Shown here: in pieces, positions 2,336 through 41,455 of the stretch | How positions within the stretch are numbered: the stretch's first letter is position 1 | Layout: every line of letters begins with the position of its first letter | From: a virus | DNA: 41,862 nt | Virus record (IMG/VR): IMGVR_UViG_3300045988_174050 | Reading direction: 5' to 3' (one strand) | Notes under the pieces: generated by a model | The model's database searches: none | Told to the model about the DNA's origin: nothing | The model's input: only the letters and a program-made list of their open reading frames with translations | Program-made: the position numbers and the translations under genes

Positions 2336-2794
2336 ATGTCATGTGACGGAAATTGCGCGACGTGTCCGATTCAGTGCGGTGCGTCCACGTTGTCCAAGCT
2401 CGAAGCAAACAAAAAGGAGACCAGGGAAATGAGCGAAGGAGCAATCACCTGCAAGAGCGGAAATGAAGAAAAAATTGCGGTTCTTCTTGCTGAAAATGAG
2501 AACTTGAAAGAGCAGCTCAAAACGCACGGCGCTTCAACTCCGCTTTCAACCGGCCTGAAAACAACGACGTATGTTTCTCTTGTCATTGCGATTATTGCTC
2601 TTTGCGCGGCATTTTATGCTATGAGCAAGGCAGACCGATATGCTGAAATGATTGTTACCGCCAGCAAAAACGCTTCGGACGCTATTACGCTTTCAAAAGA
2701 TGCAAACATGAAAGCGCTTGAGGCAAAAGATCGCTCGGACAAAAACTTTTCTTATCTCCGCGATATGCGCCGAGATTTTAAGGGAAATTTGTGA
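2336..2794 (+). CDS. Plus-strand moron inside the head-tail module: a Cys-rich membrane-anchored protein (N-terminal CDGNCATCPIQC, central TM helix YVSLVIAIIALCAAFYAM)
   Basis: 152-aa ORF with RBS AAGGGG 7 nt before the ATG. It is the only plus-strand gene within the minus-strand structural block. It has a coiled-coil segment (LLAENENLKEQLK). Its stop codon is embedded in the GTGACGTCAC repeats. Confidence 0.45.
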   Translation: MSCDGNCATCPIQCGASTLSKLEANKKETREMSEGAITCKSGNEEKIAVLLAENENLKEQLKTHGASTPLSTGLKTTTYVSLVIAIIALCAAFYAMSKADRYAEMIVTASKNASDAITLSKDANMKALEAKDRSDKNFSYLRDMRRDFKGNL

Positions 2795-2826
2795 CGTCAC
2801 GTGACGTCACGTGATAGCACGTGACA
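2791..2826. repeat. Tandem palindromic GTGACGTCAC repeats (gtgacgtcac gtgacgtcac gtgatagcac gtgaca)
   Basis: Directly visible. The same GTGAC/GTCAC half-site family recurs at 10703-10778. Confidence 0.7.
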
Positions 2827-2940
2827 ATTTTTGTTTTTTTACTTGATTTTTTCCAAAATGACGCTATACTAATTACAGTCACACAATTGGATAGCGGTAA
2901 AATTGGCAAGAGATTGTTGATTTTGCCGCTCTCTTTTTTA

Positions 2941-3862: not shown

Positions 3863-3927
3863 TGATCAACCTCAAAAATCGCCCCTTTGATGCTATCTCC
3901 GGGGCTATGGTGGAGGAGATGAGGGAA

Positions 3928-5139
3928 TTATTCGGTTACGGCCTTGGTAAACACCGGAGCTTCTTCCGAGCTGGTGATCTGCACCAACTTACCGCCGCGA
4001 AGTTTCGCAATTGCTTCCTCCGCGCCCATCAGGCCTTTGATCTGACAGGCGCGGAGCTTCGCGTTGTTGAACTCGAACGTCGTTTCCGCAATCAACGACC
4101 GCCGGATGCCGTCAAACCCGTTTTCGGTCGAGTCGCTGTCCGTCGGAGGTTGCATGTGACGAATTCGGATCATCTCGGGATCGATTACCCATGCCTGATC
4201 CGGGACGATGTTCATCAGCGGGTCAGCAACGATAGTCAGCAGAGAACCGTTCAGGGCGTTGACGACCTGCGCAACGTAGTTGCCGCGCACGCGATCCTCT
4301 CTGAGAATCTGTACCTGATCGCGAGACGTTGCACCAAACACACGTGCCTGAGCCGGGCAGGTCAAAACGGCCTTCCCCTCTCCACCGGCTCCGGCAATCT
4401 GTTGAATAGCATCATTGATAATGATGTCATCAAAAATGGAAGTCCCGCCGCCGTCCACAGACAGCGCTCCCTCTCCGGTCGCGAATTCGTACAGGCCTCC
4501 TGCCATGCCGAGGGCAGAGCCGGAACGTTCCTGCCGGTGTCCGAAAACGAGAACCCCGTTCATGTCGCGCACCATCTCTTCGAGCTTGAGCGAGACCTGA
4601 TGGTTGATCTGGTTGTCGAGGTTTCCGTAAACGGCGGTCTGAATTGCCGAACGGGACAGCGTGACATCCTTCCGAAAAATCTGCGTGTAATTGTACGCCA
4701 TAGAAGCTTGATGAATCGGGCCATCACCGGCGGAACTTCCCTCTTTTTCCGGGTCAGCAACGATCGTCCACGGAACGTTCGCCGGTGCATTGCTGGCATT
4801 GCGGCTTCCTCCGTTTGCGGCGACCAGAGAAACGGTCATGGTAGTGCCGCTGGCGCTGTCTACTTTGAACAGCTCAGGGCCTCCATGCGCCATGACCAGA
4901 GAACCGACTTTCACCATCGCAACTTCTTCAGCCGTAACGGTCAGAGAACCAGACGAATTTCCGGTCGGTTTGAACCGGCGCGGTCCGATGCTGTCCTCCA
5001 TCCATTCGACTTTCGTAGAGGTTGCGGCCTCTCCGGTTCCGATCATTCCGAGAAGCAGCGGCATTTCCTGACGAATGATTTCATAGGTCTCGAGAACCTG
5101 CCGCTTTTTGTTTGCCCAAGTGTAACTGTATCCAGCCAT
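3928..5139 (-). CDS. Major capsid protein
   Basis: 403 aa. It is preceded by a scaffold-like coiled-coil gene, is highly expressed-looking, Gly/Ala/Thr-rich and of typical size for a major capsid protein. The call rests on synteny and composition. Confidence 0.65.
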   Translation of the reverse strand: MAGYSYTWANKKRQVLETYEIIRQEMPLLLGMIGTGEAATSTKVEWMEDSIGPRRFKPTGNSSGSLTVTAEEVAMVKVGSLVMAHGGPELFKVDSASGTTMTVSLVAANGGSRNASNAPANVPWTIVADPEKEGSSAGDGPIHQASMAYNYTQIFRKDVTLSRSAIQTAVYGNLDNQINHQVSLKLEEMVRDMNGVLVFGHRQERSGSALGMAGGLYEFATGEGALSVDGGGTSIFDDIIINDAIQQIAGAGGEGKAVLTCPAQARVFGATSRDQVQILREDRVRGNYVAQVVNALNGSLLTIVADPLMNIVPDQAWVIDPEMIRIRHMQPPTDSDSTENGFDGIRRSLIAETTFEFNNAKLRACQIKGLMGAEEAIAKLRGGKLVQITSSEEAPVFTKAVTE

Positions 5140-5164: not shown

Positions 5165-5884
5165 TCAGTCAACTTCTTTTGCGTCTTGAAGCGATGCCGT
5201 CAAGCGGTCGCGGTAACTCCCTTCGCGCTGACCGCCCGTTACATTTTTCTGGTCAGTGTTCGGGTTGTTTACCCTGCCGCTGCCGAACTTCGACGGCGTG
5301 CTTTCTTTCAGGAGTTTCAGTTTGTCGGCCTTGGAGATAATGAAGTCGAGCGGCTTTTTGCCGTCGATATCTTCGAGCTCGGAAATTGCATTCAACTTGA
5401 AATAGCCTCGCGAATCCTTCGCCCATTCCCGCACAAGCTCCCGGTCGTACTTGTCATCGAGTTTGTCGATCATCTTTTCGACCGCATCCCACGTTTCGCG
5501 CTTTGCCTTTTCCGCTTTTTCGCGCTCGTAGTCGGCCTTCATCGGCTCGTAGGCATTTTTCAGATCTTCCAGCTGTTTCGCAAGCGTCAGGTACTCGGCG
5601 CTCTTGGTCGGGTCACTGCCCGCCGGATTGCCATTTGCCGCGCTCCTGAGCAATTCCGCCAGCTCTTCCGGAGATTTGCCAAGTTGCTTGAACGGTCGGA
5701 GCGCGTCTTCCGCCGCCTTGCGGTCGTTCGTCTCCTTGCGTTTCGCTTCCAGCACGTTCTCCACATCCTGCTCCGTTTTGATCCGCGTCTCGTCCAACGA
5801 GAACTTCCCTCCGTTTTCCGTTACAAACGGGCGGAGGACTTCCGGAACGGCCTCCAAATTTTCCGCGACAATCTCGACAGCCAT
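5165..5884 (-). CDS. Scaffolding protein
   Basis: 239 aa, highly charged (K/E/D-rich) and coiled-coil (EDLKNAYEPMKADYEREKAEKAKRETWDAVEKMIDKLDDKYDRE). It lies directly upstream of the major capsid protein. Confidence 0.55.
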   Translation of the reverse strand: MAVEIVAENLEAVPEVLRPFVTENGGKFSLDETRIKTEQDVENVLEAKRKETNDRKAAEDALRPFKQLGKSPEELAELLRSAANGNPAGSDPTKSAEYLTLAKQLEDLKNAYEPMKADYEREKAEKAKRETWDAVEKMIDKLDDKYDRELVREWAKDSRGYFKLNAISELEDIDGKKPLDFIISKADKLKLLKESTPSKFGSGRVNNPNTDQKNVTGGQREGSYRDRLTASLQDAKEVD

Positions 5885-5927
5885 CTGTCAACAACTCCCT
5901 TTTGTGCATCCGCTGACCATCAGCGTT

Positions 5928-5958
5928 GCGTGTTTCAACAAATGTTTGAATGTCAACC
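5928..5958 (-). promoter_or_regulatory. Late-operon motif copy #3 (GGTTGACA-N8-TTTGTTGAAAC) upstream of the scaffold gene
   Basis: Minus strand: ggttgacattcaaacatttgttgaaac. Confidence 0.4.
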
Positions 5959-7197
5959 TCAACTCGCGAAACTGGCTTGATCGAGCTTTTTCAGCTCTTC
6001 CACGGTCAGCCGTTTTTGCGGGTAAGGCGGGATAAATTTATCGAGTTTCAGGCCGCCCTTTTTCCAGAGTTTGTACCGCTCCGGCCCTAACCAGTCTTTG
6101 CGCTGCTGCTCGGTCATATGCTCATTAAAGTATTCGCGAAACGATACCGCACCGTCGCTTTGCTCGTAAGCCGGTTCTCCGGTTCGTTTTTCGTACTCGC
6201 GCATTGCCTGATAGTACAATTTTTTCTTCTGCTCTTCATCAAGCTCGGAAAACTTCTTGCCCTTGTTTTTCGCTTCGTATGAACGTTGCGCTTCCGACAT
6301 GAAGTCGGCTTTCGCCATCGGCCTTTGCTCATCAGCGAAGTCGGAAGCCGGAGTAACCGGAAGCAGCACGCAACGGCAATTCGGGTGCAGTGGTAGGGAC
6401 GGATGTTCCTCATCCAGTTTATACCGCTTGCGATCTAGAGAGCCGCAAACCGGGCATACCCTGCCATCTAGCGTCGAGAGAATTTCAACTCCGGTTATTA
6501 CATCGTCGTTCGCTTTGTAAAACTGCTCCTTTGCCCCGTTTGCTATTCCGTTGCAAACCGTCCTCGCCATGTTGACGGCCTCCCGGCGCGTGGTGTTGAA
6601 AATGCCGTCTTTGTATCCGTTTTCAGCAGTTCCGGTGATGTTGTCCGCAATCTGATCAATCGTCCATCCGGAAGAAAGCCCACGGCTTACAATTGACTCA
6701 ATTCTAGCCGCGTCATCATACGAGGTTTCCGAAAACCATTGCTGTAAAGTTTTGTCATAGCAAATATAGTTTTGAATGACGCGCGAAAGTGAGGTTCCCG
6801 AAGGCTCGTTCAGCTTCTTCTCCCCGGTCATCTCCTTTGTGACGCGTTTCCCCCATTCCACCTCGTTTTCAGCAAGCTTTTTTGACTCATTTTCAACGTT
6901 TTTTTGAGCATCCGAAAAAGCCTGCGCCCGGATTTTAACGAGCTTTTCGTTGATCTTTTTCAGCTGTTGCAGAGTCTTCTTTTGGTTCGGGACGAAATCG
7001 AAATTTTTCAACTCCTTTTGCAGTTTTTCAAGGAATTTTTTCTCCGTCGCGTCAAGCGCGTCGTTGATAATCTCGCCCCAGTTCGAGCCGATTACCTGCA
7101 GCCGGGCCTGATGATCCGCAATCTGCTTTGCAAGCTCGGCAATTTTTGATTTTTTAGCGGATTCCGTTTTCGTCGCGGTCGGCATTTGCGTTTTCAT
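5959..7197 (-). CDS. Head morphogenesis protein, Mu gpF / SPP1 gp7 family
   Basis: Contains ...TLDGRVCPVCGSLDRKRYKLDEEHPSLPLHPNCRCV..., the hallmark of Phage_Mu_F minor head proteins. It lies downstream of the portal. Confidence 0.8.
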   Translation of the reverse strand: MKTQMPTATKTESAKKSKIAELAKQIADHQARLQVIGSNWGEIINDALDATEKKFLEKLQKELKNFDFVPNQKKTLQQLKKINEKLVKIRAQAFSDAQKNVENESKKLAENEVEWGKRVTKEMTGEKKLNEPSGTSLSRVIQNYICYDKTLQQWFSETSYDDAARIESIVSRGLSSGWTIDQIADNITGTAENGYKDGIFNTTRREAVNMARTVCNGIANGAKEQFYKANDDVITGVEILSTLDGRVCPVCGSLDRKRYKLDEEHPSLPLHPNCRCVLLPVTPASDFADEQRPMAKADFMSEAQRSYEAKNKGKKFSELDEEQKKKLYYQAMREYEKRTGEPAYEQSDGAVSFREYFNEHMTEQQRKDWLGPERYKLWKKGGLKLDKFIPPYPQKRLTVEELKKLDQASFAS

Positions 7198-8698
7198 CCT
7201 CGTTCTGCTCGTTCACCGCTCCGGAAAGCCTCGCAAGGTCCATGTTAGCGAAGTTGTCGGTCTCTTCCGCCTCGCTCTCCGCGTCAAGCTCCGCCTCCAG
7301 CTCGATCCAGTCACGATGTTCAAGCCCGGCGTTCCGCTCGATCCACGAGCGCATTTCCTCGCGCGTCATCATGAGCGATTGCCGGTTCATCGCGAACTGA
7401 ACAATCTCTTGCGAACTGGCCTTCAGGTCTGCAAAGTCGTTTGACGGGGCGTAAATGATCTTTTCCGCAACTGCTTCCCGATCTTCTCCCGGATGCTCCC
7501 ACTGATACGCGAAGCGAAGAATATTCTGCAATCCGATCCCGATATTCTCGTTAATGATCCGAAGGGCGGCGGTTTGCGCATTGCGGACAATTTCCAGAGC
7601 AACGCCGGAAGCGTTTGCCGCGCCCTCGATCCCGGCAATCGAAACGCCCATTTTCTCAGCATCCACCTGCATGGTCTGGATGTTCTGCAACTGCGCATTC
7701 GCGCCGGCGCCGGAGAACTCAAGAAATTTCACATCGGCATCCGCCGGGATGTCCTGAAAAACGTCGCTCCCGAGCTTCGGGTCGTCGGCCCCCTTCGTCA
7801 TCCCCTTCCGGATCAGCGTCGGGTCGGAGGTCATGAAAAGCGTCTGCTGATACGGCGCGTCGGCATTGTAAAGGTGAATCGAGTGATTCACCAGATCGAT
7901 CATCGGCGGGCGCTGGTAATGCCCGAAACTACGGTCAGTCACGTTGAAGACGAAAAACGGAATCCGGCTCCCGATTACTCCGTAGGGTGCGGGATATTCG
8001 ACTTCCCCGGCGTTCGGGTTCAGGATGTCAAAGCCTTCCCAGTCCTCCGGCTTGATCCGCGCCTGATAGTATCTTCCCGCCTCATCCAGTCCGAGCACCA
8101 GCAACCAGCGGTCAAAGTCCCGCTTTTTCGTCCTGATGTCAAACACCACGTCCGAATCATCGAGCAGTACCCATGTCAGGTAACTTTCGCCGCGCTCCGT
8201 CTCCCAGTCGCAATCGAGAAACTTCTCCGGCGCAAAGTGATCGATGTAAAAGAGGTTTTGCCCTTGCGTCGTGTCCCCCACCTGCAAAAGAAGGTGGTAA
8301 CGCCCGAACTTGAGGATGTTTTCAATCACCCGGTTAGCCAGAGCGATAAGCCCGCCGTGATCACTGGTCGCCCAGTCCCGGAAAAACTCGAGGTCGTCGA
8401 GCTGCATTTCCGGCTCGCTGGAAGAGAGGATACCGCACATCTTGAGCAGCGTATCTTTGCAGTAGGAGGGGAATTTAGGGCGGTCTAAATAAGCTTTCCA
8501 CGCGGCAGGTTTCTTCTTACTCTCCGGGCGGTAAAGGTATTTGTCTCCGGCGGATCTGATTGCGTCCTCCCCGGCGAATGCGTCGCGGCATTTCTGCCAT
8601 TCGTCGCACTTGATACGGTATTCCGGCGGGCAGAAATTCTTGACGAAATCTTTCCAAGCCAGTTTTTTTGTGACGGCGGTAAAATCTGTTACCAACAT
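7154..8698 (-). CDS. Portal protein
   Basis: 514 aa, located between TerL and the Mu-F-like protein, with an acidic C-terminal tail. Its size and position are typical of a portal. Confidence 0.75.
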   Translation of the reverse strand: MLVTDFTAVTKKLAWKDFVKNFCPPEYRIKCDEWQKCRDAFAGEDAIRSAGDKYLYRPESKKKPAAWKAYLDRPKFPSYCKDTLLKMCGILSSSEPEMQLDDLEFFRDWATSDHGGLIALANRVIENILKFGRYHLLLQVGDTTQGQNLFYIDHFAPEKFLDCDWETERGESYLTWVLLDDSDVVFDIRTKKRDFDRWLLVLGLDEAGRYYQARIKPEDWEGFDILNPNAGEVEYPAPYGVIGSRIPFFVFNVTDRSFGHYQRPPMIDLVNHSIHLYNADAPYQQTLFMTSDPTLIRKGMTKGADDPKLGSDVFQDIPADADVKFLEFSGAGANAQLQNIQTMQVDAEKMGVSIAGIEGAANASGVALEIVRNAQTAALRIINENIGIGLQNILRFAYQWEHPGEDREAVAEKIIYAPSNDFADLKASSQEIVQFAMNRQSLMMTREEMRSWIERNAGLEHRDWIELEAELDAESEAEETDNFANMDLARLSGAVNEQNEDENANADRDENGIR

Positions 8699-8724
8699 CG
8701 CATTTACTCCATTTCGTGAAACGT

Positions 8725-8753
8725 GTTTTCACAAAATGCGGTAAATGTCAACC
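8725..8753 (-). promoter_or_regulatory. Late-operon motif copy #4 (GGTTGACA-N9-TTTTGTGAAAAC) between terL and the portal gene
   Basis: Minus strand: ggttgacatttaccgcattttgtgaaaac. Confidence 0.4.
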
Positions 8754-8756
8754 ATT

Positions 8757-10205
8757 TCAGTAGCCGAAAACCATGTTGCCGGATGTTACGCGCGGCTTCG
8801 GATAGAGTAGCTGGTAACCTGTCTGATCGAATGCGTGATCCTCGGAAGTCGTGTCAACGTCATCCGGCTTGCGCTCGTCGCGTTGCAAAACCGGAACCGT
8901 CCTGATCCACTGTCGGCAGTGATCGAAGATGAAAATCCCCGGCTTCCCGTCCCGTTCCAGAGAGCCGCGCAACATCTCGCGGAGCTTCTGAACAGCGGCG
9001 ATACGGCTGCCCGGAGCTTTTCGGCAGGGAGTCCAGATTATCCCGTAGTCGGCGAAATCATCGGCGATTGACTTGTTACGACCGTTCGCACTGTCGAAGA
9101 TTGCGCTGTCGGCGATGGACAAAACACCGGAAAGCCCGAGCTCTTTTTCAACCGCCAAGATTTTCTCGGCAGTTGCTTCGGTCGACTCCCGCAACCCCTC
9201 GTTCGGCTTGCCGCTCCACCCGTACAGCTCATGGATCAAAAACATGTCGCCAGGAATCGACGGTCTGCTTGATCCATCCGGCAGGATATAGTCTGAACCG
9301 TCCGATTCCGCCCACCAGCCGACCGAATACGGCTTTGAACTTCCCCAGTCGAACGATTTCGAAATGTACCACGTCTCCGGGATTTTGAATCGCGGCATGA
9401 CATGAATGTCTGCATCCCACAGGTCGTCAAATGCACCGCCGGCCGTGATATCCCACGATCCGTCCCGCATGGCTTTAACAAGCCAGTCCTGCCCAAGGCC
9501 TGAAAGCTGGCGCTCGTATTCGTTTTTGTCGATGGACGGGTTATCGTCCAGTTTCGCCGGGATATACTGGCGGAGCATTCCGCCCTCGTCGTCCGGAGTT
9601 TGCCAGATGGTTTCCGGCGGTTGAGGGGAAATGAACGTCGCTTTTACCCAGTTATGCCCAACACCGCCGGGGTTTGCGCCGCAAAGAATCTGCGGGAACT
9701 GATCGCAAACGCTGAATTGCTTGAATGCCGCCCAATTTCCCCGCAAATTCTTCGGGACGCGGCAACGTCCCCGCAAGTACCGATATTGCTTCTCCGTGAA
9801 GTGCGTCAATTCGTCGATCAGCAAAACCCCGATTTCCGCCCCCTGATACTTGACAACGTCCGCCTCGTATTGACAGTGGCAAAGGTTGATCGTTGATCCG
9901 GTTTTCATAAAAGTAATCTTCGGCGGCTGGCTGGTGATCTTCACATCTCCCGACTGGACCAGAGGCGCGAGAAGCGCAATGAATCCGTTCACACCCTCCA
10001 TGTGGTTTTTCCACAGGTCATCGTGAATCCGGCGGAACAGGTAAATGGAAAGCCGCTCGACGTTCAGCGCGAAGAAAATGGCCTTGATCCGCATGAGGTG
10101 ACTTTTCCCGCCACCCGCCGCGCCGCCGTACAGAATCTCCGTCGCGTTGCTGGTGAACGCGGCCATCTGGCGCGGGTGAAGCGGGTCAAGCGCAATATCC
10201 GGCAT
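8757..10205 (-). CDS. terL: Terminase large subunit
   Basis: Walker A motif YGGAAGGGKSH and Walker B motif VLLIDELTHF, plus a C-terminal nuclease-like region. The start ATG overlaps the terS stop (TAATG at 10205). Confidence 0.85.
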   Translation of the reverse strand: MPDIALDPLHPRQMAAFTSNATEILYGGAAGGGKSHLMRIKAIFFALNVERLSIYLFRRIHDDLWKNHMEGVNGFIALLAPLVQSGDVKITSQPPKITFMKTGSTINLCHCQYEADVVKYQGAEIGVLLIDELTHFTEKQYRYLRGRCRVPKNLRGNWAAFKQFSVCDQFPQILCGANPGGVGHNWVKATFISPQPPETIWQTPDDEGGMLRQYIPAKLDDNPSIDKNEYERQLSGLGQDWLVKAMRDGSWDITAGGAFDDLWDADIHVMPRFKIPETWYISKSFDWGSSKPYSVGWWAESDGSDYILPDGSSRPSIPGDMFLIHELYGWSGKPNEGLRESTEATAEKILAVEKELGLSGVLSIADSAIFDSANGRNKSIADDFADYGIIWTPCRKAPGSRIAAVQKLREMLRGSLERDGKPGIFIFDHCRQWIRTVPVLQRDERKPDDVDTTSEDHAFDQTGYQLLYPKPRVTSGNMVFGY

Positions 10206-10669
10206 TACTGCTGATCCTCCGGGCGCTTCTCTCGGAACGTGAAGCCGGGAAGAGTAACAGAACCAGAGTGTTCGAGTTCCATTTTTTCGCTGTATTTTTT
10301 CGGGACCATTTTTGCCAGAATCCATTTCCTGGCGTCGATTTTCAGCTTCGCCCGGTCAATAGCGTCCCGGTTCAAAACTATACCTCCGTCATCGCCATTG
10401 ACGTAATCACCAGAAGAATCGTCGGCGATTTCAAGTATTTCGTCGAAGATTCGGTCGGCCCTGATTTCACGCGCGCGCTCGTATTTGTCGGAGAATTCTT
10501 TATCTTTCGACAGCCATTCAAAAATTGTGTCCCTGCAAGGCATTTTGTCGTCTCTGCAAATATTGAGCAGGCTTTCACCGTTAGAAATTCGGTTGATTAC
10601 CTCTTTCTTTATCGTCTCTTTTGATAGCGGACGCCCTTTTGATCTTCGCGCTGATTTGTAATTAGCCAT
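10205..10669 (-). CDS. terS: Terminase small subunit
   Basis: Contains ...LLNICRDDKMPCRDTIFEWLSKDKEFSDKYERAREIRADRIFDEILEIAD..., typical of small terminases (an HTH plus an oligomerisation helix). It lies directly upstream of terL, with a 4-nt overlap. The start is chosen at MANYKSARR; the alternative start is at 10729. Confidence 0.6.
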   Translation of the reverse strand: MANYKSARRSKGRPLSKETIKKEVINRISNGESLLNICRDDKMPCRDTIFEWLSKDKEFSDKYERAREIRADRIFDEILEIADDSSGDYVNGDDGGIVLNRDAIDRAKLKIDARKWILAKMVPKKYSEKMELEHSGSVTLPGFTFREKRPEDQQ

Positions 10670-10702: not shown

Positions 10703-10778
10703 CGTCACAACCGGCATCGTGATTGTCACGTGACGTTCCCGTGACCGTCACACCCGGCTCTGTGACCGAGCTGTGACA
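10703..10778. repeat. Cluster of at least seven GTGAC/GTCAC half-sites, including the palindrome GTCACGTGAC, immediately upstream of terS
   Basis: The sequence ttcgtcacaaccggcatcgtgattgtcacgtgacgttcccgtgaccgtcacacccggctctgtgaccgagctgtgacaaa is directly visible. Confidence 0.7.
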
Positions 10779-10782
10779 AAAT

Positions 10783-11496
10783 TCAGTTATTTTCGCTGTT
10801 TTTTCCTGTTTTTTCATCGCTGAAAATTCCTTCTCCCTCATCACTCCCCCTGTAGTCCCCCTCTCTCCTCCCCGGCAGAAAAAAATCACGATTTTTTTGA
10901 ACCGGCTTTTTCCTTGCCCGGTTTTTCGCTAGTTTTCGCCTCAAATTTTGCCCGATATCATGAACTGTGCTTTTCGGAATTCCCAGCTGAATCGCCGCGC
11001 TCCGTTCAGTACATCCGTCAACAAATATCTTTTTGTAAACCTCGAACTCTTTCCCGGTCAATCCCAGCAGCTTTTCCCGCTTCGCAACCGGGGTTTTCAT
11101 GCCGAGCTCTCGCGTCATCATATTGACAATTCCTTGCCGAAGCTGTTTGCTGACCGCCTGTCTTGAGATTCCGCGCTCTCTGGAAATGTCGGCTTGGTTT
11201 TGCCCAAGGTAAATTTTGCGAATGAGAGCATCAAACAAGGCACGGTGCTCGATGTAGAGAAACGCGACCTGATTCAGAACGCGCATCACTTCCGAGTTGT
11301 TTTCGTCGATTTCAATGCATGATTGAGATTCAACGTTGTCATTGTACCGTATTGAGAAACGCCGTCCACCGGCCTCTTCCTGCTTCTCGCGTATCACATC
11401 CATTCCGCAATCGTGAAGCTCGCAAGGCTCTGAACAGTTACCGCAATCCGTTCCGTAGCAATTCGCAATGTCTCGCTCTTTTTCTTCGTTCTCCAC
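10783..11496 (-). CDS. Sigma-70 region-4-like late transcriptional regulator. It has a Cys-rich N-terminus and two HTH segments, and sits in the ArpU/RinA-like position upstream of terS
   Basis: GTG start with RBS AAGGGGGG. N-terminus CYGTDCGNCSEPCELHDCG. HTH 1 is ADISRERGISRQAVSKQLRQG; HTH 2 is TERSAAIQLGIPKSTVHDIGQNLRRKL. It lies immediately upstream of the terminase genes. Confidence 0.55.
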   Translation of the reverse strand: MENEEKERDIANCYGTDCGNCSEPCELHDCGMDVIREKQEEAGGRRFSIRYNDNVESQSCIEIDENNSEVMRVLNQVAFLYIEHRALFDALIRKIYLGQNQADISRERGISRQAVSKQLRQGIVNMMTRELGMKTPVAKREKLLGLTGKEFEVYKKIFVDGCTERSAAIQLGIPKSTVHDIGQNLRRKLAKNRARKKPVQKNRDFFLPGRREGDYRGSDEGEGIFSDEKTGKNSENN

Positions 11497-11571
11497 TCCG
11501 CGCCCCCCTTGAAAATTGCTTTCATGGTATTATGTTATCTGCGGAGCTTGATACCCTTTCTTCTCCATTTG

Positions 11572-11606
11572 CCCCGGAAGTTTGCCGACTCCGGGGTTGT
11601 TTTTTG
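11572..11606 (+). terminator. Plus-strand intrinsic terminator candidate
   Basis: ccccgg...ccgggg stem followed by TTGTTTTTTG. It is preceded by TTGAAA-16-TATGTT (11509-11536). No plus-strand ORF is involved. Confidence 0.35.
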
Positions 11607-11724
11607 TCATAAAGTTGCGGCGGTGGCGTCGATTACCGGAGCCGCCGCTCTCCGTATTGTTTTGAGGCCGTATTTTCCGCCCGGCCTCCCGGATCGACGC
11701 CGCGCCGGTCCACGTGGCGGGAAT

Positions 11725-23922: not shown

Positions 23923-24000
23923 CGGGAAAAAACGATAATTCCCAATAGCGGGAAATTATGTAACAGTTTAATGTGTTACGTAACAAATCAATGTGTTACA
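23896..24000. promoter_or_regulatory. Repeat-rich region upstream of int: the perfect 22-bp palindrome cgggaaataacgttatttcccg, ACGGGAAA x3 at 26-bp spacing, and AATGTGTTAC x2
   Basis: Directly visible. It overlaps the 3' end of the nuclease gene and the int promoter region. Confidence 0.35.
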
Positions 24001-24005
24001 TTAAA

Positions 24006-25076
24006 ATGGCATTGAGGAAGATTCGCAAAACTTTTTACGTATATTTTCGCGATCTGGACGGAAGGCTGAAAACGCGGTCACTCAAAACGACCGATCCGGC
24101 GCTGGCGCGGTCGTTGCATGATGACTACATGACGCAACTCCAAGCGAAAAAGGCGCGGGCCATCCTGATCCGTGACTTCCCGGAGCTTGCGCCACCGCCA
24201 GAGCCGCCAAAGCCAGCGACAGGAGTTCACCAGCGCGGCGGAATCCGGATTGCTGACATGTGGGATTGCGCAATAAAAAAACGACCGTTGAGCAAACGAC
24301 ACAAGGAGAACTGGCAAAAACTGGTGGACGGAATCGGCGTAAAATTCGCGGATCAGGTAACGCCATCGCTGGCGCTAAAATTTCTTGAGGATCGTTACGG
24401 CAAGGGGAACGGGAAAACGTACAACAACATGAAATCTTCTTTCAACACCGTATTTCGATGCTGTTTAGTCGAGGCTAATTTAACCGCTTCTCCGTTTGCT
24501 TCGATCATTAACAAGCGAGTAACAGAGGTTGCACACCACCGTAACTTGACGCTGGAAGAATTTGCGCTGGTCATGAAAAATCTTCCTCTCCCCCTCAAAA
24601 TTCTAGCGATGCTCTCCCGCTGGACAACTCAACGGCTGGAAACCTGCGCGCGTATGACGCCGGAGATGTTCGATTTTGAAAGAAAAGTTTTCATCATTGA
24701 TCCCGGAAAAACTCGCCGGTTCAAAAAATGGGTTTGCTGCCCAATCATGCCGGAACTTGAGGAGTTTATAAAGCCAATTTTATCACGATGCAAGCCGGGG
24801 AAACCGATTGTCCAAAATTTTTGCGATTGGAACAATCATTATTTTTCGTACATGTTTAACAAAATCTTGAGAGAATGCGGTATAGAGAACAACAAATCAG
24901 GAACGGCAACTTTTCACTCGATCCGAGGGACGGCAATCACATGGTTTAAGGAACACGGGATAAAAGGCGAGGAATTGCGCTCCATTACCGGGCATGCGTC
25001 GGCAGATGTTGAAGATATTTACGCGCGTGACATTGCTACGATCAGCCGCATTGCGCGCGAGTTCGATCGTATGTAA
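24006..25076 (+). CDS. int: Tyrosine integrase
   Basis: C-terminal catalytic region ...HSIRGTAITW...ITGHASADVEDIYARD... with R, H-x-x-R and Y residues. It is adjacent to attP. Confidence 0.85.
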   Translation: MALRKIRKTFYVYFRDLDGRLKTRSLKTTDPALARSLHDDYMTQLQAKKARAILIRDFPELAPPPEPPKPATGVHQRGGIRIADMWDCAIKKRPLSKRHKENWQKLVDGIGVKFADQVTPSLALKFLEDRYGKGNGKTYNNMKSSFNTVFRCCLVEANLTASPFASIINKRVTEVAHHRNLTLEEFALVMKNLPLPLKILAMLSRWTTQRLETCARMTPEMFDFERKVFIIDPGKTRRFKKWVCCPIMPELEEFIKPILSRCKPGKPIVQNFCDWNNHYFSYMFNKILRECGIENNKSGTATFHSIRGTAITWFKEHGIKGEELRSITGHASADVEDIYARDIATISRIAREFDRM

Positions 25077-33436: not shown

Positions 33437-34366
33437 TCAGCTCAACGCCGCAATTTCCGCCGCCGTCAGCGCCCGGTCGAATCCGATCAGCGCCCGGATT
33501 TTCGTTCCGGCGGGAATCGTGAAAACCCCGCCCGGCAGCGCCGCTCCATCCAAAAGCCCGCCATCGTCGCCGAACACCAGAAACGTTTCCGGCGTACCGG
33601 TCAACTGCGTTGCAATCGTCGCCGCTTTCGACGTGTCCGCCGCCTCGAATACGCCGCGATCCGTCCGGATGTTGTCGAACGTCAGCAGCCCGACCCGTTC
33701 AGCCTCGGAAATCCCCGGCGTCGTGTCCGGATTGTCCGACGGCCACGGGTTCTGCGTTTCATAGAGTTCTGCGCGCGATGCCGACCACACCGTTTCGCCG
33801 GTGGTCAGATTCAACAATTTTGCGCTCCGCATATTCCCGTCAAAATTCGAAATCGGGTCGAAATCCGAATACCAGACGTCCGTTTGATCGACGGTGGTCG
33901 TGTTGGTTGTTCTGCCGTTTAAAATCAAACTCAGAACTCCGGAAACACGGCGGATCACCACGCTCACCCATTCGCCGATTGCGGAAAACTCAGCAAAATC
34001 AGACTGGAGCGCTCCAGCGTTTTTTTTAGTTCCGGTTTCAGGATTTTGCACCCGCCCTATCGTCAGATACATAAGGGAACCGGTAAACCCGACGTTTACG
34101 CTGCCCTGTGTGTCGCTGTGATAAAAAATGTAGTTTGGATTCTGCAACGCATTGAGTCTATAAATGACCTCGAATTCAAAATCATCGGAACCGATCACAT
34201 TTGAGGCGGCGGAAAATCCCGTCCACGTCCATGACACGTCGCCTGTTTTTTTGAAATTTCGCGGCGTATCCATCCGCAGCGGACTCAACCACATTCCGCC
34301 GTGGTCTGGAACCACCCCCAGAATGCAATCGCTCCGCCGCATCGAATCCAGAATTTTATCCCGCAT
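33437..34366 (-). CDS. Tail/baseplate protein with a jelly-roll (LamG-like) segment
   Basis: ...EWVSVVIRRVSGVLSLILNGR.... Confidence 0.45.
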   Translation of the reverse strand: MRDKILDSMRRSDCILGVVPDHGGMWLSPLRMDTPRNFKKTGDVSWTWTGFSAASNVIGSDDFEFEVIYRLNALQNPNYIFYHSDTQGSVNVGFTGSLMYLTIGRVQNPETGTKKNAGALQSDFAEFSAIGEWVSVVIRRVSGVLSLILNGRTTNTTTVDQTDVWYSDFDPISNFDGNMRSAKLLNLTTGETVWSASRAELYETQNPWPSDNPDTTPGISEAERVGLLTFDNIRTDRGVFEAADTSKAATIATQLTGTPETFLVFGDDGGLLDGAALPGGVFTIPAGTKIRALIGFDRALTAAEIAALS

Positions 34367-36074
34367 TGTACACCACCTCCAGCACCGTCACAATTGCCGT
34401 GATCGTCGAACCGTCCCGCAGCGTGTCGCGTTCGTCCGCCGTCTCTCGGCGCAACGAAAATGATCCATTCGCCCCGTCGGAACCGAGGTCGGCAAATGAA
34501 ATTTCGTTCCATTCCCCGGTCGGACACACCACCGCGTCACGTTCGACACCGCCCAGAATCGGCGTCAAAACGACGTTGCCGGAAAATCCCGCGTTCGCGC
34601 TCTCAATTCTGAATTTGATCGATTGCGCCTGCCAGATGTGGTCGGCCAGCGTCAGAACGGGCGTCGTTTCATCGAGATAAACGCACCGCCCCCAGGTGGA
34701 ATCGGCGACGGTGAACTCCATTACCGGGTTGCGGTCAATAATTGCGCCGTCCCGCCCTTTAATTCCACGCGGTTTCAATACCCATGATGCCACCGGCCAT
34801 CCTCCGGCGAATGTCAATTCATAACCTGAATCTGTCCACCGGCGGCGCAATCGTGAATCTGCCGAGATGTTATACCCGGAGGAATCAATCAAATCGAATT
34901 CGCATTGACCGGAAACCCCCAGATCATCCGATGTCATGACAACGGTTTCGCCGGTTTCTGCGGTTGTTTCAAACGGAATTTCCAGAACATCGGTAATAAT
35001 TGCCCCGTCCGCACCGTTCGCCCCGTCCTGACCTGCTGGCCCCTGCGGTCCGGTTTCGCCCTGTGGCCCCGGTTCTCCCTGCGGCCCGGTTTCGCCCTGT
35101 GGCCCCGGTTCGCCCTGTTCCCCCTGAACCAGTTTTTCAATTGTCCATTGCGCCGATTCAACCGGGTACCGATATCGTTTGTACCTGTCGCTGTCCGTCT
35201 GTTCCGAATGCCATTCTGTAGAACCGTTGACGCTGAATTCAACCTCTGGAGCAACCGAAATCATCGTTATAACGGTTGCTGCAATCTGGTTTTGCGTTGC
35301 GTCGGGGATTTCCCCCTCGACTCCGACGGTTCCGATCGTTTTTACAACACTGAACGTGTCACACAGAAACGCGGTGATAATCTCGTCGGTTGCGTTGTCC
35401 GTTGTTCGGTAAATCAACATCTCCAGACCGGCAACCGGCAAACTGCCGCTGCTGTCGTAATCCGTGTTCGCCCTGATCCTCATCGAGTCCATAACCAGAT
35501 CAAAAACGAATTCGCCTTTTGCTAAATTCGACTGTTCTAAATCCAGAAACGCCTCCGCGTATGGCGACTGGTCGCAATCGATCGTTGCGCCGGAATCATA
35601 CGTTTTGGAAACCTCCCCGGAAACGGTGAACGTCACGTCGGTTCCGGAAATACTGCGCTCAGAATAATACAGCGATTCATATTCTCCGGTTGAATCGAAC
35701 AGCCGGATTGTCCCCTGTTGCGGTATCGTAGAATACGACGCATTTCCAATGACGGCAGAAACGCTCGCCACCTCTCCAGCGCTAACGGTGCCGGAGAGTT
35801 CGCCCTTCAGTTTGTGAATGTAATCATTGTCAACGGTCAGTTTTGCGCCGATGCCGGAAATTTCCGCCCATGATGTGTCGCGCGTCCACGATGAAACGTC
35901 TACGCCCTGTTCACCTGCCATCGGCGTTTCAGTGCACGCAATGATTTTAATCGTTTCCCGGCTGCCAACCGCTCGTTGCGGGTTGTTCCGGCTGAATGGG
36001 TCGCCGTCCGCATCGTACCATTCCGATTTTGTAGTGTTCAAAAAAATTTCCAGCATGCTGTCCTCCGTTTTCAC
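34356..36074 (-). CDS. Tail protein with collagen-like G-X-Y repeats
   Basis: [40 protein letters not shown]. Confidence 0.6.
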
Positions 36075-36094
36075 AAAATATGGAGATTGTCAAC
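36066..36094 (-). promoter_or_regulatory. Late-operon motif copy #5 (GGTTGACA-N9-TTTTGTGAAAAC) upstream of the collagen-like tail gene
   Basis: Minus strand: ggttgacaatctccatattttgtgaaaac. Confidence 0.4.
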
Positions 36095-36098
36095 CCGT

Positions 36099-37905: not shown

Positions 37906-38964
37906 TTACGCCCTGTCCCTCGGTAAATCGAACGAATTCCAGCTGGAAATTTTCGCGTCATAAATTTTAATCTGCAAATACGGATAATTTATCGGGTCGG
38001 CGAGAGCCTCCGTGTAGAGCGTTCCGTCAGATCGTAACGGCATCGGCTCGGTAATTTCCTCGTATGGCAACGAATCCCATCGCTGTTGGCGTTCTGACAT
38101 TGAAAACAAATTCGCATACGTATTTTTCGCCTTAATTACGTCATCAATACTGCCGAAAACTGGTCGAACTCGAAAATTAGTTGCATCGTCCGTGCTCGTC
38201 CACGGCGTATAGCTGTAAATGTTTTTCGGAATTTTTACGATGTTCCCGGTGTGATTGCGGAAATAGCACATTGTGCCGACGTTCAATAAATTTCTCGACC
38301 ATCCGTTTTTGTTTATCTGAATCGTCGTCGAAACATCCCAGTATTCGCGTTTTACCCGGTCGCCGGTCGATTCATATTCGATCATCGGAGTTGCCTCCTG
38401 CGGCAGCAGCAACCCGGTCAGCGGCTCTATTTTTATACCGGCGACGGTAACGTTGTTTTTGTTCACCAGCATTTCCGTTGCCCCGTTAAAATCTCTCCCG
38501 CCCTTGACGCAATATGTGAATTTGATTTCCCGGACGTATTTCGTTGTCTCGGCCACAATCTGGCATCCGGCGGTATTCAGGTTGCGAACCTCCCGCCCGT
38601 GCTCATCATATCCGGATGAAAACGCCTCCTGAATGTTCACGAAACTGGAGGTCACGTTCTGCGCCCCGAGATCCCACGGATCGCCCCTGAATTCGCGAAC
38701 CAGTTCCGCCCCGTTCGAATACGACAATGTAGCCGACACCTGAACCTTGCGATTCCTGTTCCCGATTTGATTGATGTTTATTGTATCGAGATAAAACGCC
38801 GTGTTTTCCGGATGCCTCCAGCCGCGTTGCGGCATTTTTGTGCTGGTTGCAATCTCCATCATGGAGTCACCCTCAATGATCATGGTTCTGGTCATTGTAG
38901 CGGCACCACCGGACGAAACATCCAGCTGCGAATCGTCCTGAGCGATAATGTTCACCATATTCAA
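37906..38964 (-). CDS. Distal tail protein (Dit-like by position)
   Basis: 352-aa ORF immediately downstream of the TMP, overlapping it by 4 nt. Confidence 0.45.
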   Translation of the reverse strand: MNMVNIIAQDDSQLDVSSGGAATMTRTMIIEGDSMMEIATSTKMPQRGWRHPENTAFYLDTININQIGNRNRKVQVSATLSYSNGAELVREFRGDPWDLGAQNVTSSFVNIQEAFSSGYDEHGREVRNLNTAGCQIVAETTKYVREIKFTYCVKGGRDFNGATEMLVNKNNVTVAGIKIEPLTGLLLPQEATPMIEYESTGDRVKREYWDVSTTIQINKNGWSRNLLNVGTMCYFRNHTGNIVKIPKNIYSYTPWTSTDDATNFRVRPVFGSIDDVIKAKNTYANLFSMSERQQRWDSLPYEEITEPMPLRSDGTLYTEALADPINYPYLQIKIYDAKISSWNSFDLPRDRA

Positions 38965-40811
38965 TTACCTCCATACGAAACCAGCGGATTTGTCCGAGTC
39001 GGCGAACTCATTTTGTCAATGCCGCGTCTGATTTTTTCCAGAACGTCCAGCTGCCGCTCCTGAATCCTGATTTCAGGCGATTGCGTGAATACACGAGACT
39101 GCAACCTCAGAGCCTCAACGCTGTTTGCCAGAATTTCCGTTTGCGAACGATCCCGGAACGATTTAATATCGTCCGCAATCGATTTCATTGACGCTACAAA
39201 CTGATCATCGCCCCCCTTATTACGAGCGGCCACATCATCTCCAGCGGTCAATCCCCTCCGCGAGTCAATTTCCCGTTGACGCCTCCCGTATGCGTCAATA
39301 ACGCCATCTATCCCCTCGGTGATAGAGGTAAATTCGCCCATCCTGATTCCGTTCTGTGCCAGATATCGCTCTGTATTTTTACCGGCCTCGCCAATTAATT
39401 TCTTGGCTGCACCGAGTCGTTTTTTCTGATATTCATAAAATGCATCGCCAACATCACTGGCGAATCGTTTTGTCCCAGCTCCAAATTCGAACCCCTCCCA
39501 TTGTTTCGCAATTTTTTGTTGCGTTTCATAGCTCGCCTGCAAATATGTGTCAAAAACGCCGCCGACCGCCTCTGAAAATGATTTTTCACCGGTTATCAAA
39601 TCCCAGAAATTTTCACCGAGAGACGCTGCTATCTTCCCGATGTTTTTGATGGACTCCCAAAACGCAACGCCAATGCTCTTCAGAGAGTTAATGACGATTT
39701 TCCACATGTCGCCAAAAATACCCTTCCAGTTACGGAGAAACGAGTCGAGCACCGTTGAGAAAAAATCAAACGTCCCTGTCACATCGACCATTATCAAATT
39801 CCACGTATTGCCCGCAATATTTTTAATATCCTCCCAAACCGCGCCAAAAAACCCCGGTGCGTCACTCCACGCCTGAACCAGCGATTCCCAGACGTATTTC
39901 CCCACGACGGCCACGTTTGAAAATGCGTTTTTCACCACCGTCCAAATCAATTCAAAACCACCCCTCATTATGTTGATGAACGATGCCACGTAATATGACC
40001 ATTCGGCCGAATTTTCTTTGATGTATCCAGTTATGCTTGCGAACGTATCTGCAAATTCGCCCTTGATGTTACCAACCTGAATAACGCTGTTGATAAAACC
40101 GCCGATCGTTGTTTTCAGTTCATCGATCCGGTTTGCCAGTTTACGCGACTGGTTGGCGATTGACTCTTGATTTCTCCAGTAATCACCCAATACATAACCT
40201 TTTTGATCAAACATCTGATACAACGCTGCAAACTGTCTAGCCTGTATATCATTTGATGCTTTTAATGTTGCCCCAAAACGTTCGATATATAAACCTGTAG
40301 ATTTCGCCTGTTTTTCTAATGCCTTAAATTCTTTGGTGTCAGTTTTTATAAAAACTCCAAGAGCTTTAGCAGCTTCAGGTTCACCGAGACTAGCTTTAAC
40401 TAGATTAAACGTAGCGCGTTCCGCACCTTCTGCATAGTTTGAAAATGATGTCAAATCAGAACCAAGCTTACTTACCCATCCTGAAATCATATTGACATAG
40501 TTCTGGTTAATGCCTGTACTACGCATCAAATCACCTGCTTGCGCCATCATCCTGCGTGCAGAAAGTTCAGACTGCCCGTATTTATCTATCAATTCTTGCA
40601 CGTGTTTATTTGCCTCGTTTTGAACACCTGCAAAGACTGTTTCAAATTTTTGTGTTTCTTCCTGAAGATCGGAAAATATTCTGATGCTTTCTGCCCCAAA
40701 CTCAATAGCCTTGCGCCCCAGCATACCGAGCGCGAAACCTAGTTTGTTGATAGAGTTAACCGCACCGGCGGTCTGACATGCGATAATAATCGACGCGGTA
40801 ACATCGTCCAT
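38961..40811 (-). CDS. Tape measure protein
   Basis: 616 aa, helical with W/F-rich repeats, lying between the G/GT chaperone and the distal tail protein. Confidence 0.6.
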   Translation of the reverse strand: MDDVTASIIIACQTAGAVNSINKLGFALGMLGRKAIEFGAESIRIFSDLQEETQKFETVFAGVQNEANKHVQELIDKYGQSELSARRMMAQAGDLMRSTGINQNYVNMISGWVSKLGSDLTSFSNYAEGAERATFNLVKASLGEPEAAKALGVFIKTDTKEFKALEKQAKSTGLYIERFGATLKASNDIQARQFAALYQMFDQKGYVLGDYWRNQESIANQSRKLANRIDELKTTIGGFINSVIQVGNIKGEFADTFASITGYIKENSAEWSYYVASFINIMRGGFELIWTVVKNAFSNVAVVGKYVWESLVQAWSDAPGFFGAVWEDIKNIAGNTWNLIMVDVTGTFDFFSTVLDSFLRNWKGIFGDMWKIVINSLKSIGVAFWESIKNIGKIAASLGENFWDLITGEKSFSEAVGGVFDTYLQASYETQQKIAKQWEGFEFGAGTKRFASDVGDAFYEYQKKRLGAAKKLIGEAGKNTERYLAQNGIRMGEFTSITEGIDGVIDAYGRRQREIDSRRGLTAGDDVAARNKGGDDQFVASMKSIADDIKSFRDRSQTEILANSVEALRLQSRVFTQSPEIRIQERQLDVLEKIRRGIDKMSSPTRTNPLVSYGGN

Positions 40812-40825
40812 AACAAAAACCTCCT

Positions 40826-40853
40826 GTTTTCATCAAAAACCGGAAATGTCAAC
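40826..40853 (-). promoter_or_regulatory. Late-operon motif copy #6 (GGTTGACA-N9-TTTGATGAAAAC) upstream of the TMP
   Basis: Minus strand: ggttgacatttccggtttttgatgaaaac. Confidence 0.4.
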
Positions 40854-40854
40854 C

Positions 40855-40883
40855 TTGAAGAAAAAGAAAATTTGATGTATATT
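40855..40883 (+). promoter_or_regulatory. Near-consensus sigma70 promoter TTGAAG-17-TATATT driving the moron gene
   Basis: ttgaagaaaaagaaaatttgatgtatatt, 30 nt upstream of ATG 40913. Confidence 0.45.
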
Positions 40884-40912
40884 ACAAGTACCTAACAAAG
40901 AAAGGGATAAAA

Positions 40913-41455
40913 ATGGCAAGATTAAAAAAATGCAAATCGTGCGGCAACATGATTGCAAAAGATGCAAAAATTTGCCCGCAATGTGGCGGAAGAGTTAAAA
41001 AATCTCACGGATGCCTGATGATCATTATTCTGATGATTGTTATTTTTGTAGCAGCAAAAATTTCATTACCCAATAGTGATGTTCCATCAACATCCAATAA
41101 CGATGCGCCCAAAACGGAAAATCCTAATTCTCCCGAAAATGCGGACGCTTTTCAGGTTGATTATTTCTCAAATGATGGAGCAATAATTTTTGCTCAAAAT
41201 TTCTTAGAGAAATATGGTGACAATATTAAATATACTACGGCTGCAAAAGTCGGGAAAATTATTACATCAAAGTCAGACAAAAGAACAGACCAAAAAACAG
41301 GAGATTTTTGGTCTGTCTATCAAGAATTTACAGAAAAAAATGCTTTCGGAGTTGATCTTAAGCATTCATACTCTGCTATCATTGAATTCAAATCAGGTGC
41401 GGGGTACAGAATGGTAATGCTGATGATTGATGATGTAGCTGTTTATCCGAAATAG
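40913..41455 (+). CDS. AT-rich moron: a membrane-anchored protein with an N-terminal zinc ribbon, a TM helix and an extracytoplasmic domain
   Basis: MARLKKCKSCGNMIAKDAKICPQCGG..., TM helix LMIIILMIVIFVAAKI. It has its own promoter and terminator, and much lower GC than its surroundings. Confidence 0.55.
   Translation: MARLKKCKSCGNMIAKDAKICPQCGGRVKKSHGCLMIIILMIVIFVAAKISLPNSDVPSTSNNDAPKTENPNSPENADAFQVDYFSNDGAIIFAQNFLEKYGDNIKYTTAAKVGKIITSKSDKRTDQKTGDFWSVYQEFTEKNAFGVDLKHSYSAIIEFKSGAGYRMVMLMIDDVAVYPK

Follow-up and report, generated by a model that had tools for sequence, protein, structure and literature searches.

Outside a handful of model hosts, little is known of how temperate siphoviruses switch on their virion genes, and nothing in the case of uncultivated gut phages. 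In the lytic phages T4 (TATAAATA; gp55/gp33), SPO1 (gp33/34) and phiEco32 (gp36), a promoter consensus is repeated before the late genes and is read by host RNA polymerase together with phage-encoded specificity proteins; these promoters have a distinctive -10-type element and no host-type -35. Gram-positive bacteria also possess a class of sigmaA promoters with an extended -10 or '-16 region' (TRTG). In temperate siphoviruses of Gram-positive hosts, the late activators are the Ltr regulators (RinA, ArpU, LtrA/Sigma70_r4, LtrB and LtrC), without which the morphogenesis and lysis genes are not turned on and which have been described as acting at one promoter, on a repeat region upstream of terS; what defines the LtrA family is that its members resemble sigma region 4 (Quiles-Puchalt et al. 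2013, PMC3753634). A repressive arrangement is known from the stoperators of Cluster A mycobacteriophages (L5 gp71; TipsytheTRex repressor), which are asymmetric, short intergenic and oriented with transcription, are bound by a repressor that acts as a monomer with two DNA-binding domains, and in L5 number more than 20 across the genome, including operator copies at promoters (PMC9283540). The late promoters of SPP1, which we also considered for comparison, are themselves undefined (PMC6316719). Here, we analysed the 41,862 nucleotides of IMG/VR virus record IMGVR_UViG_3300045988_174050 (the window), in whose virion module a bipartite motif, GGTTGACA followed by a TTTTGTGAAAAC-like box, recurs in short intergenic gaps. 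With a probability of roughly 60%, we read its seven copies as phage-specific, factor-dependent late promoters that need a phage-made helper protein.

Exact copies of GGTTGACA occur six times in the window, against a chance expectation of ~1.3 for both strands combined, and every one lies on the minus strand in an intergenic gap. A TTTTGTGAAAAC-like box stands 7-9 nt after each of them, matching TTTTGTGAAAAC exactly in copies W4 and W5 (Table 1), with two mismatches in W6 and with three in W1-W3. On a joint two-box score with a maximum of 20, six sites reached at least 17, while 50 Markov-1 shuffles gave an expectation of 0.06 and at most one such site in any shuffle. The repeated motif described in an earlier note made from the sequence is thus real. 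All six copies listed there were recovered, but a seventh on the plus strand, W7, had been overlooked; it is weaker than the other copies and lies back to back with W2 (N8 spacer). The earlier coordinates hold for W1 and W4, but are off by one base for W5 and W6 and by 1-4 bases at the downstream end for W2 and W3. On our own gene map, intergenic DNA makes up 8.4% of the genome and holds all seven copies, each co-oriented with the gene downstream. The copies do sit in short gaps before a ribosome-binding site, yet at a measured distance of 0-35 nt and not at the 10-50 nt first claimed, and the Shine-Dalgarno sequence abuts the motif in W5 and W6. Nor are they regularly spaced along the genome, as had been suggested; the intervals are irregular. 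No copy was found in the early and immunity region, where sites scoring at least 15 (between 11.5 and 34 kb) are weak matches inside coding sequence only; sites of this score away from the late junctions are weak matches throughout. Likewise, the GGTTGACA motif is absent upstream of terS.

Is the motif kept in related phages? We collected relatives through the portal protein (L001), through contigs encoding homologues of the portal and of a sigma-region-4-like protein with two helix-turn-helix (HTH) domains, here called the dual-HTH protein (L002-L009), and through a metagenome scan (L045-L060). Together with the window, they provided 29 non-redundant motif instances. The boxes are indeed kept at the same junctions, as a search proposed in the earlier note would have it, in relatives whose sigma4-like proteins are 45-67% and portals 31-97% identical. 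In L001-L004, the structural genes are 65-96% identical to those of the window and the dual-HTH protein only 45-67%; the motif occupies the same junctions, with the inter-box spacer and flanks diverged and GTTGACA, the T-tract and TGA fixed. The L001 contig carries it at 7/7 window junctions, plus an eighth copy before an extra gene. Contig IMGVR_UViG_3300029621_000043 has it at 7/7, with neck and tape measure genes that are only 33-47% identical. Individual equivalents were found in L001 at 18071 (W1), 16041 (W2), 19607 (W6) and 4136 on the minus strand (W7), in L004 at 20102 (W2) and 20090 on the minus strand (W7), and in L027 at 2800 before a fibre homologue (W5). The W7 equivalents precede homologues of the window's opposite-strand ORF (open reading frame) 2336-2794 that are 84-86% identical and have this late-motif copy of their own. 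An alignment of the W3 junction (window, L001-L004 and L009) has GTTGACA, TTT and TGA invariant, and the W4 copy is kept upstream of the portal gene in L001-L004, L005, L006, L007, L009, L045, L048 and L050. The L009/L048/L050 lineage stands further away (portal ~32%, major capsid protein 42% and dual-HTH protein 47-51% identical; GC 57-58%) and reads GGTTGACA-N8-TTTTGCGAAAAA at the portal junction and GGTTGACA-N8-TTTTCTGAAAAC at the scaffold junction. In the short contigs L005, L006 and L007, with portals 32-69% identical, GGTTGAC(A/T), a T-tract and (T/C)(G/A)A lie upstream of the portal gene. A pattern scan of IMG/VR returned 35 matching stretches, among which the multi-copy carriers are only relatives of this phage. 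The remaining 30-odd matches are singletons on unrelated, mostly AT-rich contigs at about the rate that we estimate for chance, and the motif is therefore clade-specific.

The first half of the motif is a perfect, extended -35 box, (G)GTTGACA. TTGACA is exact in 7/7 window copies and in 27 of the 29 instances, the other two reading TTGACT. A T-tract follows ~9 nt downstream, and TGA stands 13-14 nt after TTGACA in the majority of the 29 instances, among them 5/7 window copies, so that TG takes the extended -10 position for a 16-17-nt spacer. A -10 box is missing, which bears out the earlier observation on the second half of the motif. Indeed, a sigma70-type consensus scan for TAnnnT 16-18 nt after the -35 called no copy. 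The hexamer position anchored on TG reads AAAnnn and not TAnnnT, with A at -12, -11 and -10 in 25, 23 and 20 of the 29 sites, T at -7 in a single site and T at -12 in none; some hexamers are GGCGTG, GGCACA or ACCGAA. Early intergenic regions carry conventional sites (TTGAAA-17-TAAAAT, ATGAAA-17-TACAAT and TTGATT-16-TATATT). Since distant relatives (L054-L060) have, after the gene for the dual-HTH homologue, GGTTGACA-N17-TAAAKT or TAGATT with a normal -10, GGTTGACA looks like an ordinary strong -35 of the host or phage group. What distinguishes the late class is that its perfect -35 and TG come without a -10 box.

In these distant relatives, which are contigs of 43-65 kb, the homologues (for example L056 9653-10306) combine a Cys-rich module with two HTH domains and are 32-36% identical over the HTH region, and between TerL and portal these phages, too, have a GGTTGACA-N13-TGTGGGCAAAAT site. 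Other readings of the motif were tried and set aside. A MerR-type arrangement (19-20-nt spacer and a later -10) gave no convincing TAnnnT in W4 and W5, the copies inspected. The sigma54-like, Bacteroidetes-type (-33 TTTG / -7 TAnnTTTG), ECF, sporulation-sigma and TcdR-type consensus sequences do not fit. Box 2 as a dimer operator (TTTT-N3-AAAA palindrome) fits many copies but not the TGAGGC and TGAACC variants, and for a phage RNA polymerase we found neither an ORF large enough nor an RNA polymerase family match.

Several copies stand where transcription has to begin anew. W2 and W7 share the divergent intergenic gap 2216-2335, with the upstream neighbour of W2 on the opposite strand, and W6 lies in the divergent gap 40812-40912, with the plus-strand ORF 40913-41455 as its upstream neighbour. 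Two terminator-like hairpins downstream of ORF 2336-2794 divide the capsid unit from the W2 unit. Another, called on both strands, comes upstream of W6, where it separates the tube/chaperone unit from the plus-strand ORF 40913-41455. Because W2/W7 and W6 are placed behind opposite-strand genes and terminator-like hairpins, a promoter is required there. Relatives present the same situation at other genes: the L005 portal gene has opposite-strand genes on both sides and the motif upstream, a second L005 copy comes after a block of four minus-strand genes, and the L009 scaffold gene, preceded by a divergent gene, carries the motif. Conservation at the same junctions and the copies behind opposite-strand genes, together with the lack of copies in the early and immunity region and of a shared RNA fold, make phage-specific internal late promoters or activator sites, as the earlier note had proposed, the best-supported reading. 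The seven promoters would split the virion genes into about seven units, namely portal with the MuF-like gene, scaffold with the major capsid gene, ORF 1748-2215 through the tail-completion gene, tube with chaperone, tape measure with the distal tail genes, the fibre gene onward, and the opposite-strand Cys-rich ORF.

We infer from the sequence that the sites act as promoters, fire late and depend on a factor, and likewise which factor this is; we propose the following mechanism. Host RNA polymerase would dock on the -35 and TG and could not open the DNA efficiently on its own, so that transcription would wait for a factor made by the phage. Such promoters would suit a temperate phage, whose virion genes should be silent in the lysogen. 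The likeliest factor would be the dual-HTH protein encoded just upstream of terS, which could recognise the two-part site itself, or could stand in for sigma region 4 or support it. This protein has an N-terminal CYGx2Cx2Cx3C (Cys4) module and two sigma-region-4/LuxR-type HTH domains. The region 4 HTH (residues 143-179) matches PF08281 with 29.6 bits against a cut-off of 25.7, and the other (residues 98-124) resembles Sigma70_r4 and KorA. No sigma region 2 was found in it, and it is therefore not a sigma factor; a scan of ~60 ORFs found no other regulator or sigma region 2-like protein. CYGx2Cx2Cx3C does not vary among 31 homologues, which shows that the deposited annotation, at 206 aa, is cut short. 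Homologues mostly have ~203 aa, and the isoelectric point is 8.1 for the window protein and 9.0 for the 203-aa core. The family is rare, with 136 clusters at E <=1e-3 among 1.84 billion representatives and no match at this threshold by tblastn against 50,697 phage records. Its gene is present in every relative whose contig covers the region, directly before terS (PHROG 1482, E = 8e-43) in the window, L001 and L003, and with one to three genes in between in L002, L004 and L009. The protein had been named in the earlier note as a plausible partner of the motif. Its position is that of known late activators, but its co-occurrence with the motif is inseparable from shared ancestry. We regard it as a plausible factor.

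Some further features of this gene and its surroundings are worth recording. The window protein has a 34-residue C-terminal extension (…NRDFFLPGRREGDYRGSDEGEGIFSDEKTGKNSENN), probably from a lost stop codon or a frameshift, where most homologues end in …KKS. Upstream of the gene, a conserved hairpin CCCCGGagtcggcaaacttCCGGGG, shared with the equivalent regions of L002-L004, is followed by a conserved ...ATAtAgCA... element and then by AATTTTCAAGGgGG; this region may be a control region (terminator/antiterminator or promoter) that times the candidate regulator. Between the dual-HTH gene and terS lies a cluster of palindromic GTCAC/GTGAC repeats (GTCACGTGAC-type), which L003 retains, and L004 retains in part, upstream of its own terS, and a second cluster is found just downstream of the plus-strand ORF 2336-2794. 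With at most one mismatch, GTCACGTGAC has four matches against 0.84 expected. The cluster before terS may be a pac/TerS recognition site or an Ltr-type repeat region.

A number of points weigh against factor-dependent late promoters, and it is mainly the start-site geometry, with the Shine-Dalgarno sequence abutting box 2, that keeps our confidence from being higher. When the first T of TTGACA is taken as -35, starts fall at ~820, 2252, 5921, 8716, 36058, 40817 and 2334 (plus strand). For W1-W4, this sigma70 geometry gives leaders of 18-40 nt that include the Shine-Dalgarno sequence. In W5, W6 and W7, and in two copies of relatives, the start would come 3' of the Shine-Dalgarno sequence and leave leaders of 1-6 nt. 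Either the W5-W7 RNAs are leaderless messages, with a Shine-Dalgarno sequence that serves read-through RNA only, or transcription starts just after box 2; the latter fits no sigma70-family holoenzyme, in a phage without an RNA polymerase gene. In addition, W1, W3, W4 and W5 lie within 1-4 nt of a co-directional upstream gene (W1 begins 3 nt past the stop codon of the tail-completion gene), and read-through alone could therefore express the genes downstream of them. What ties the dual-HTH protein to the motif is its position and its co-occurrence with it within one lineage, and its HTH2 recognition helix differs from homologue to homologue whereas the motif is constant; that of HTH1 (SRQAVSK) is conserved across the family. 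We can only speculate that HTH1 reads the invariant box and HTH2 something variable. Finally, the hairpin around the portal copy is very stable (z = -5.6), and that copy may also act as RNA.

A bolder version of the proposal holds that the dual-HTH protein is a 'sigma without region 2', whose two sigma4-type domains read GGTTGACA and TTTTnTGAAAA and allow initiation without a -10 hexamer. Its compact geometry might place the start just after box 2, which would explain why Shine-Dalgarno sequences and 5' hairpins begin directly after the motif; the conserved hairpin of the scaffold leader, which begins right after box 2, would fit a start there. We hold this version to be improbable.

Could the copies be ordinary weak host sigmaA promoters, in which the -35 and TG offset a poor -10 and which boost or maintain transcription of the late region with no phage factor? 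TTGACA and TG do stand at the exact sigmaA spacing (16-17 nt to the hexamer), A occupies -11 in 23 of 29 sites, and GGTTGACA heads the normal-10 promoters of distant relatives. In AT-rich L005, box 2 is TGAATAAAAA, which gives TTGACA-N18-TAAAAA and comes nearer to a real -10. However, T stands at -7 in a single one of 29 sites and the hexamer can be GGCGTG, GGCACA or ACCGAA, selection keeps TGAAAA from drifting to TATAAT across relatives of 38-58% GC, and constitutive promoters before the virion genes would express late genes in the lysogen of this integrase-encoding phage. We thus consider unaided sigmaA promoters unlikely.

Less likely still is a signal at the RNA level, that is, an element of a polycistronic late transcript that marks a processing site, serves as translational operator or enhancer, or signals antitermination. 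As expected for a transcribed element, the motif is always 0-35 nt before the Shine-Dalgarno sequence and abuts it in W5 and W6. The portal copy lies inside a hairpin of -23.7 kcal/mol, in whose L009 counterpart box 2 has GCG for GTG and the sequence downstream has a corresponding CGC for CAC, and in the scaffold leader, box 2 is directly followed by a conserved hairpin. However, fold z-scores of the six copies (0.12, -0.51, -1.01, -5.61, 0.45 and -0.77) leave only the portal copy structured; the other five are no more stably folded than shuffled sequence, no structure is common to the copies, and the T4-N3-A4 inverted repeat is too weak for an RNA stem. Moreover, the invariant part equals a sigma70 -35 consensus with a correctly spaced TG, which would be a coincidence in an RNA signal. 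The RNA processing or antitermination role, which the earlier note had kept as an alternative, is disfavoured.

The two structured leaders deserve mention in their own right. In the portal leader, box 2 (CAUUUUGUGAAA) pairs with UUUCACGAAAUG and the Shine-Dalgarno sequence is partly occluded; the inner stem recurs in relatives, including the L009 pair of changes (GUG-to-GCG with CAC-to-CGC). This hairpin could make translation differ between read-through and promoter-initiated RNA. The scaffold leader of the window and of L001-L004, which precedes the scaffold/major-capsid unit, forms a hairpin GCAaCGCTGA-tgg-TCAGCGgaTGC directly after box 2, with the core CGCTGAtggTCAGCG invariant in five genomes, and may serve as a 5' mRNA stabiliser.

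The least probable alternative, stoperator-like sites at which a repressor or roadblock protein halts polymerase before the virion genes during lysogeny, would agree with asymmetric bipartite sites that lie in short intergenic gaps strictly oriented with transcription and with a two-domain DNA binder encoded in the window, but its 7 sites are all in the virion module, the immunity and early regions and their vicinity, where operators are expected, have none, and copies after opposite-strand genes meet no incoming transcription to stop.

What kind of phage carries the motif? A 99-bp direct repeat at the window ends (1-99 and 41764-41862) marks the window as a complete circular assembly of ~41.76 kb, with 50% GC and no tRNA genes found. 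It carries DAM90920.1, annotated 'MAG TPA: ECF sigma factor [Caudoviricetes sp.]'. Most genes are on the minus strand, where the order is dual-HTH gene, terS (PHROG 1482), TerL, portal (PHROG 145, DUF4055), a Mu-F/SPP1 gp7-like head morphogenesis gene, putative scaffold, major capsid protein (PHROG 1328), small head/neck genes, tail completion (PHROG 169), putative tube, a chaperone-like ORF, tape measure protein, distal tail genes and collagen-like fibre. The minus-strand chaperone-like ORF spans the circular junction, so the order of tube, chaperone and tape measure is continuous. Of the genes that the motif was first said to precede, portal, tape measure and collagen-like fibre stand; tail tube, head closure and scaffold were assigned from gene order only, with no family match. 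An integrase, Rha, RecT/YqaJ and a PAPS-reductase-like gene are present (early region, 11.5-23 kb), and the phage is therefore temperate, a temperate siphovirus. Related contigs come from human gut metagenomes, and strong AGGAGG ribosome-binding sites suggest a Firmicutes-like host. A megablast of 12 kb found no close isolated phages; by tblastn, the best portal matches among isolated phages, 9g-like coliphages, are only 28-30% identical. A prophage search with portal and dual-HTH alignments against 185,579 species-representative genomes gave no true prophage, its three matches being short and HTH-only.

Table 1. Positions of the motif copies, genes and other elements in the window (W, motif copy; SD, Shine-Dalgarno sequence)
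Feature	Position	Strand	Exact GGTTGACA box	Description
W1	830-857	minus	850-857	GGTTGACA-aattcgcg-TTTTGTAGAGAC, upstream of ORF 378-800
W2	2262-2289	minus	2282-2289	GGTTGACA-attccccg-TTTAATGAAAGC, upstream of ORF 1748-2215
W3	5932-5958	minus	5951-5958	GGTTGACA-ttcaaac-ATTTGTTGAAAC, upstream of putative scaffold and major capsid gene
W4	8725-8753	minus	8746-8753	GGTTGACA-tttaccgca-TTTTGTGAAAAC, between TerL and portal
W5	36067-36095	minus	36088-36095	GGTTGACA-atctccata-TTTTGTGAAAAC, upstream of collagen-like tail fibre gene
W6	40826-40854	minus	40847-40854	GGTTGACA-tttccggtt-TTTGATGAAAAC, upstream of tape measure gene
W7	2297-2324	plus		AGTTGACA-tcttagca-TTTTGTAACGAA, upstream of Cys-rich ORF 2336-2794
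Candidate cognate factor (dual-HTH gene)	10783-11496	minus		237 aa, GTG start at 11496, last gene before terS
TerL	8757-10325	minus		
Portal	7154-8698	minus		
Putative scaffold ORF	5165-5884	minus		
Major capsid gene	3928-5139	minus		
Tail-completion gene	860-1279	minus		PHROG 169
Putative tail tube ORF	378-800	minus		
Tape measure gene	38961-40811	minus		
Collagen-like tail fibre gene	34356-36056	minus		
Integrase	23973-25076			
Terminator-like hairpin	2806-2825	plus		downstream of ORF 2336-2794
Terminator-like hairpin	2893-2930	plus		17-bp stem; downstream of ORF 2336-2794
Bidirectional terminator-like hairpin	41463-41483	both		
Terminator-like hairpin	3880-3912	minus		after major capsid gene
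Tandem repeat	2227-2256	minus		between W2 and SD
Portal leader hairpin	8696-8756	minus		
Scaffold leader hairpin	5890-5931	minus		
Region upstream of dual-HTH gene	11497-11620	minus		
GTCAC/GTGAC repeat cluster	10722-10782			dual-HTH gene to terS
GTCAC/GTGAC repeat cluster	2790-2830			

Some neighbouring elements also attracted our attention. The ORFs 2336-2794 and 40913-41455 are opposite-strand insertions on the plus strand of the virion module, both with Cys-rich starts (MSCDGNCATC...). ORF 40913-41455 has a weak rubrerythrin-like match and, in place of the late motif, a sigmaA-like site (TTGAAG-17-TATATT) back to back with W6. The leader of ORF 1748-2215 contains three tandem copies of cgtgctttcg. 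Right after the major capsid gene, a terminator-like hairpin CCCCGGagatagcatcaaaGGGG with a T-run, kept in L003, L004 and L009, may be an attenuator and so set how strongly the capsid gene is expressed relative to the genes downstream.

This case offers a clean, conserved late-promoter signature together with a rare family of candidate regulators. If the late-promoter reading is right, one could tell from sequence alone how an entire clade of gut phages divides its genes into transcription units, and the Ltr-type scheme of one activator at one promoter upstream of terS would extend to a multi-promoter layout. The pair could also provide a compact phage-inducible promoter and activator for a gut host. 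Should a sigma4-only protein help to open promoters that have no -10, this would be mechanistically new.

Among described systems, the Ltr regulators resemble the candidate in that it too is a basic DNA-binding protein whose gene closes the early cluster, just ahead of terS, and the window has GTCAC repeats upstream of terS. It differs from them in size (237 aa) and in its Cys4 module and two HTH domains, and the seven motif copies lie inside the virion module with none upstream of terS; tblastn against the same 50,697 phage records gave no match that would relate it to characterised Ltr proteins. With the late promoters of T4, SPO1 and phiEco32, the motif shares a short conserved sequence, distinct from the host consensus, that is repeated before many late genes. 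Unlike in those phages, it has a perfect host-type -35 and a missing -10, in a 42-kb temperate siphovirus in which no sigma region 2-like protein was found. Stoperators are likewise asymmetric, placed in short intergenic gaps and oriented with transcription; here, in contrast, 7 copies are confined to the virion module, with none in the immunity region, and several sit where transcription must start. Extended -10 sigmaA promoters have in common with the motif TTGACA, a spacer of 16-17 nt and, one base before the hexamer position, TG (often within TGTG or TATG), but the hexamer here is AAAnnn, with T at -7 in 1/29, and the -10 that defines the class is missing. RNA signals of the T7 RNase III type have a conserved stable hairpin at each site, which here is found at the portal copy only. 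We would thus place the motif among phage-specific late promoters that use an activator encoded by the phage, which is a kind already known, and regard as unusual its perfect -35 and TG without a -10, its seven copies across the virion module of a temperate siphovirus as against one promoter upstream of terS, and its rare Cys4 dual-HTH candidate regulator.

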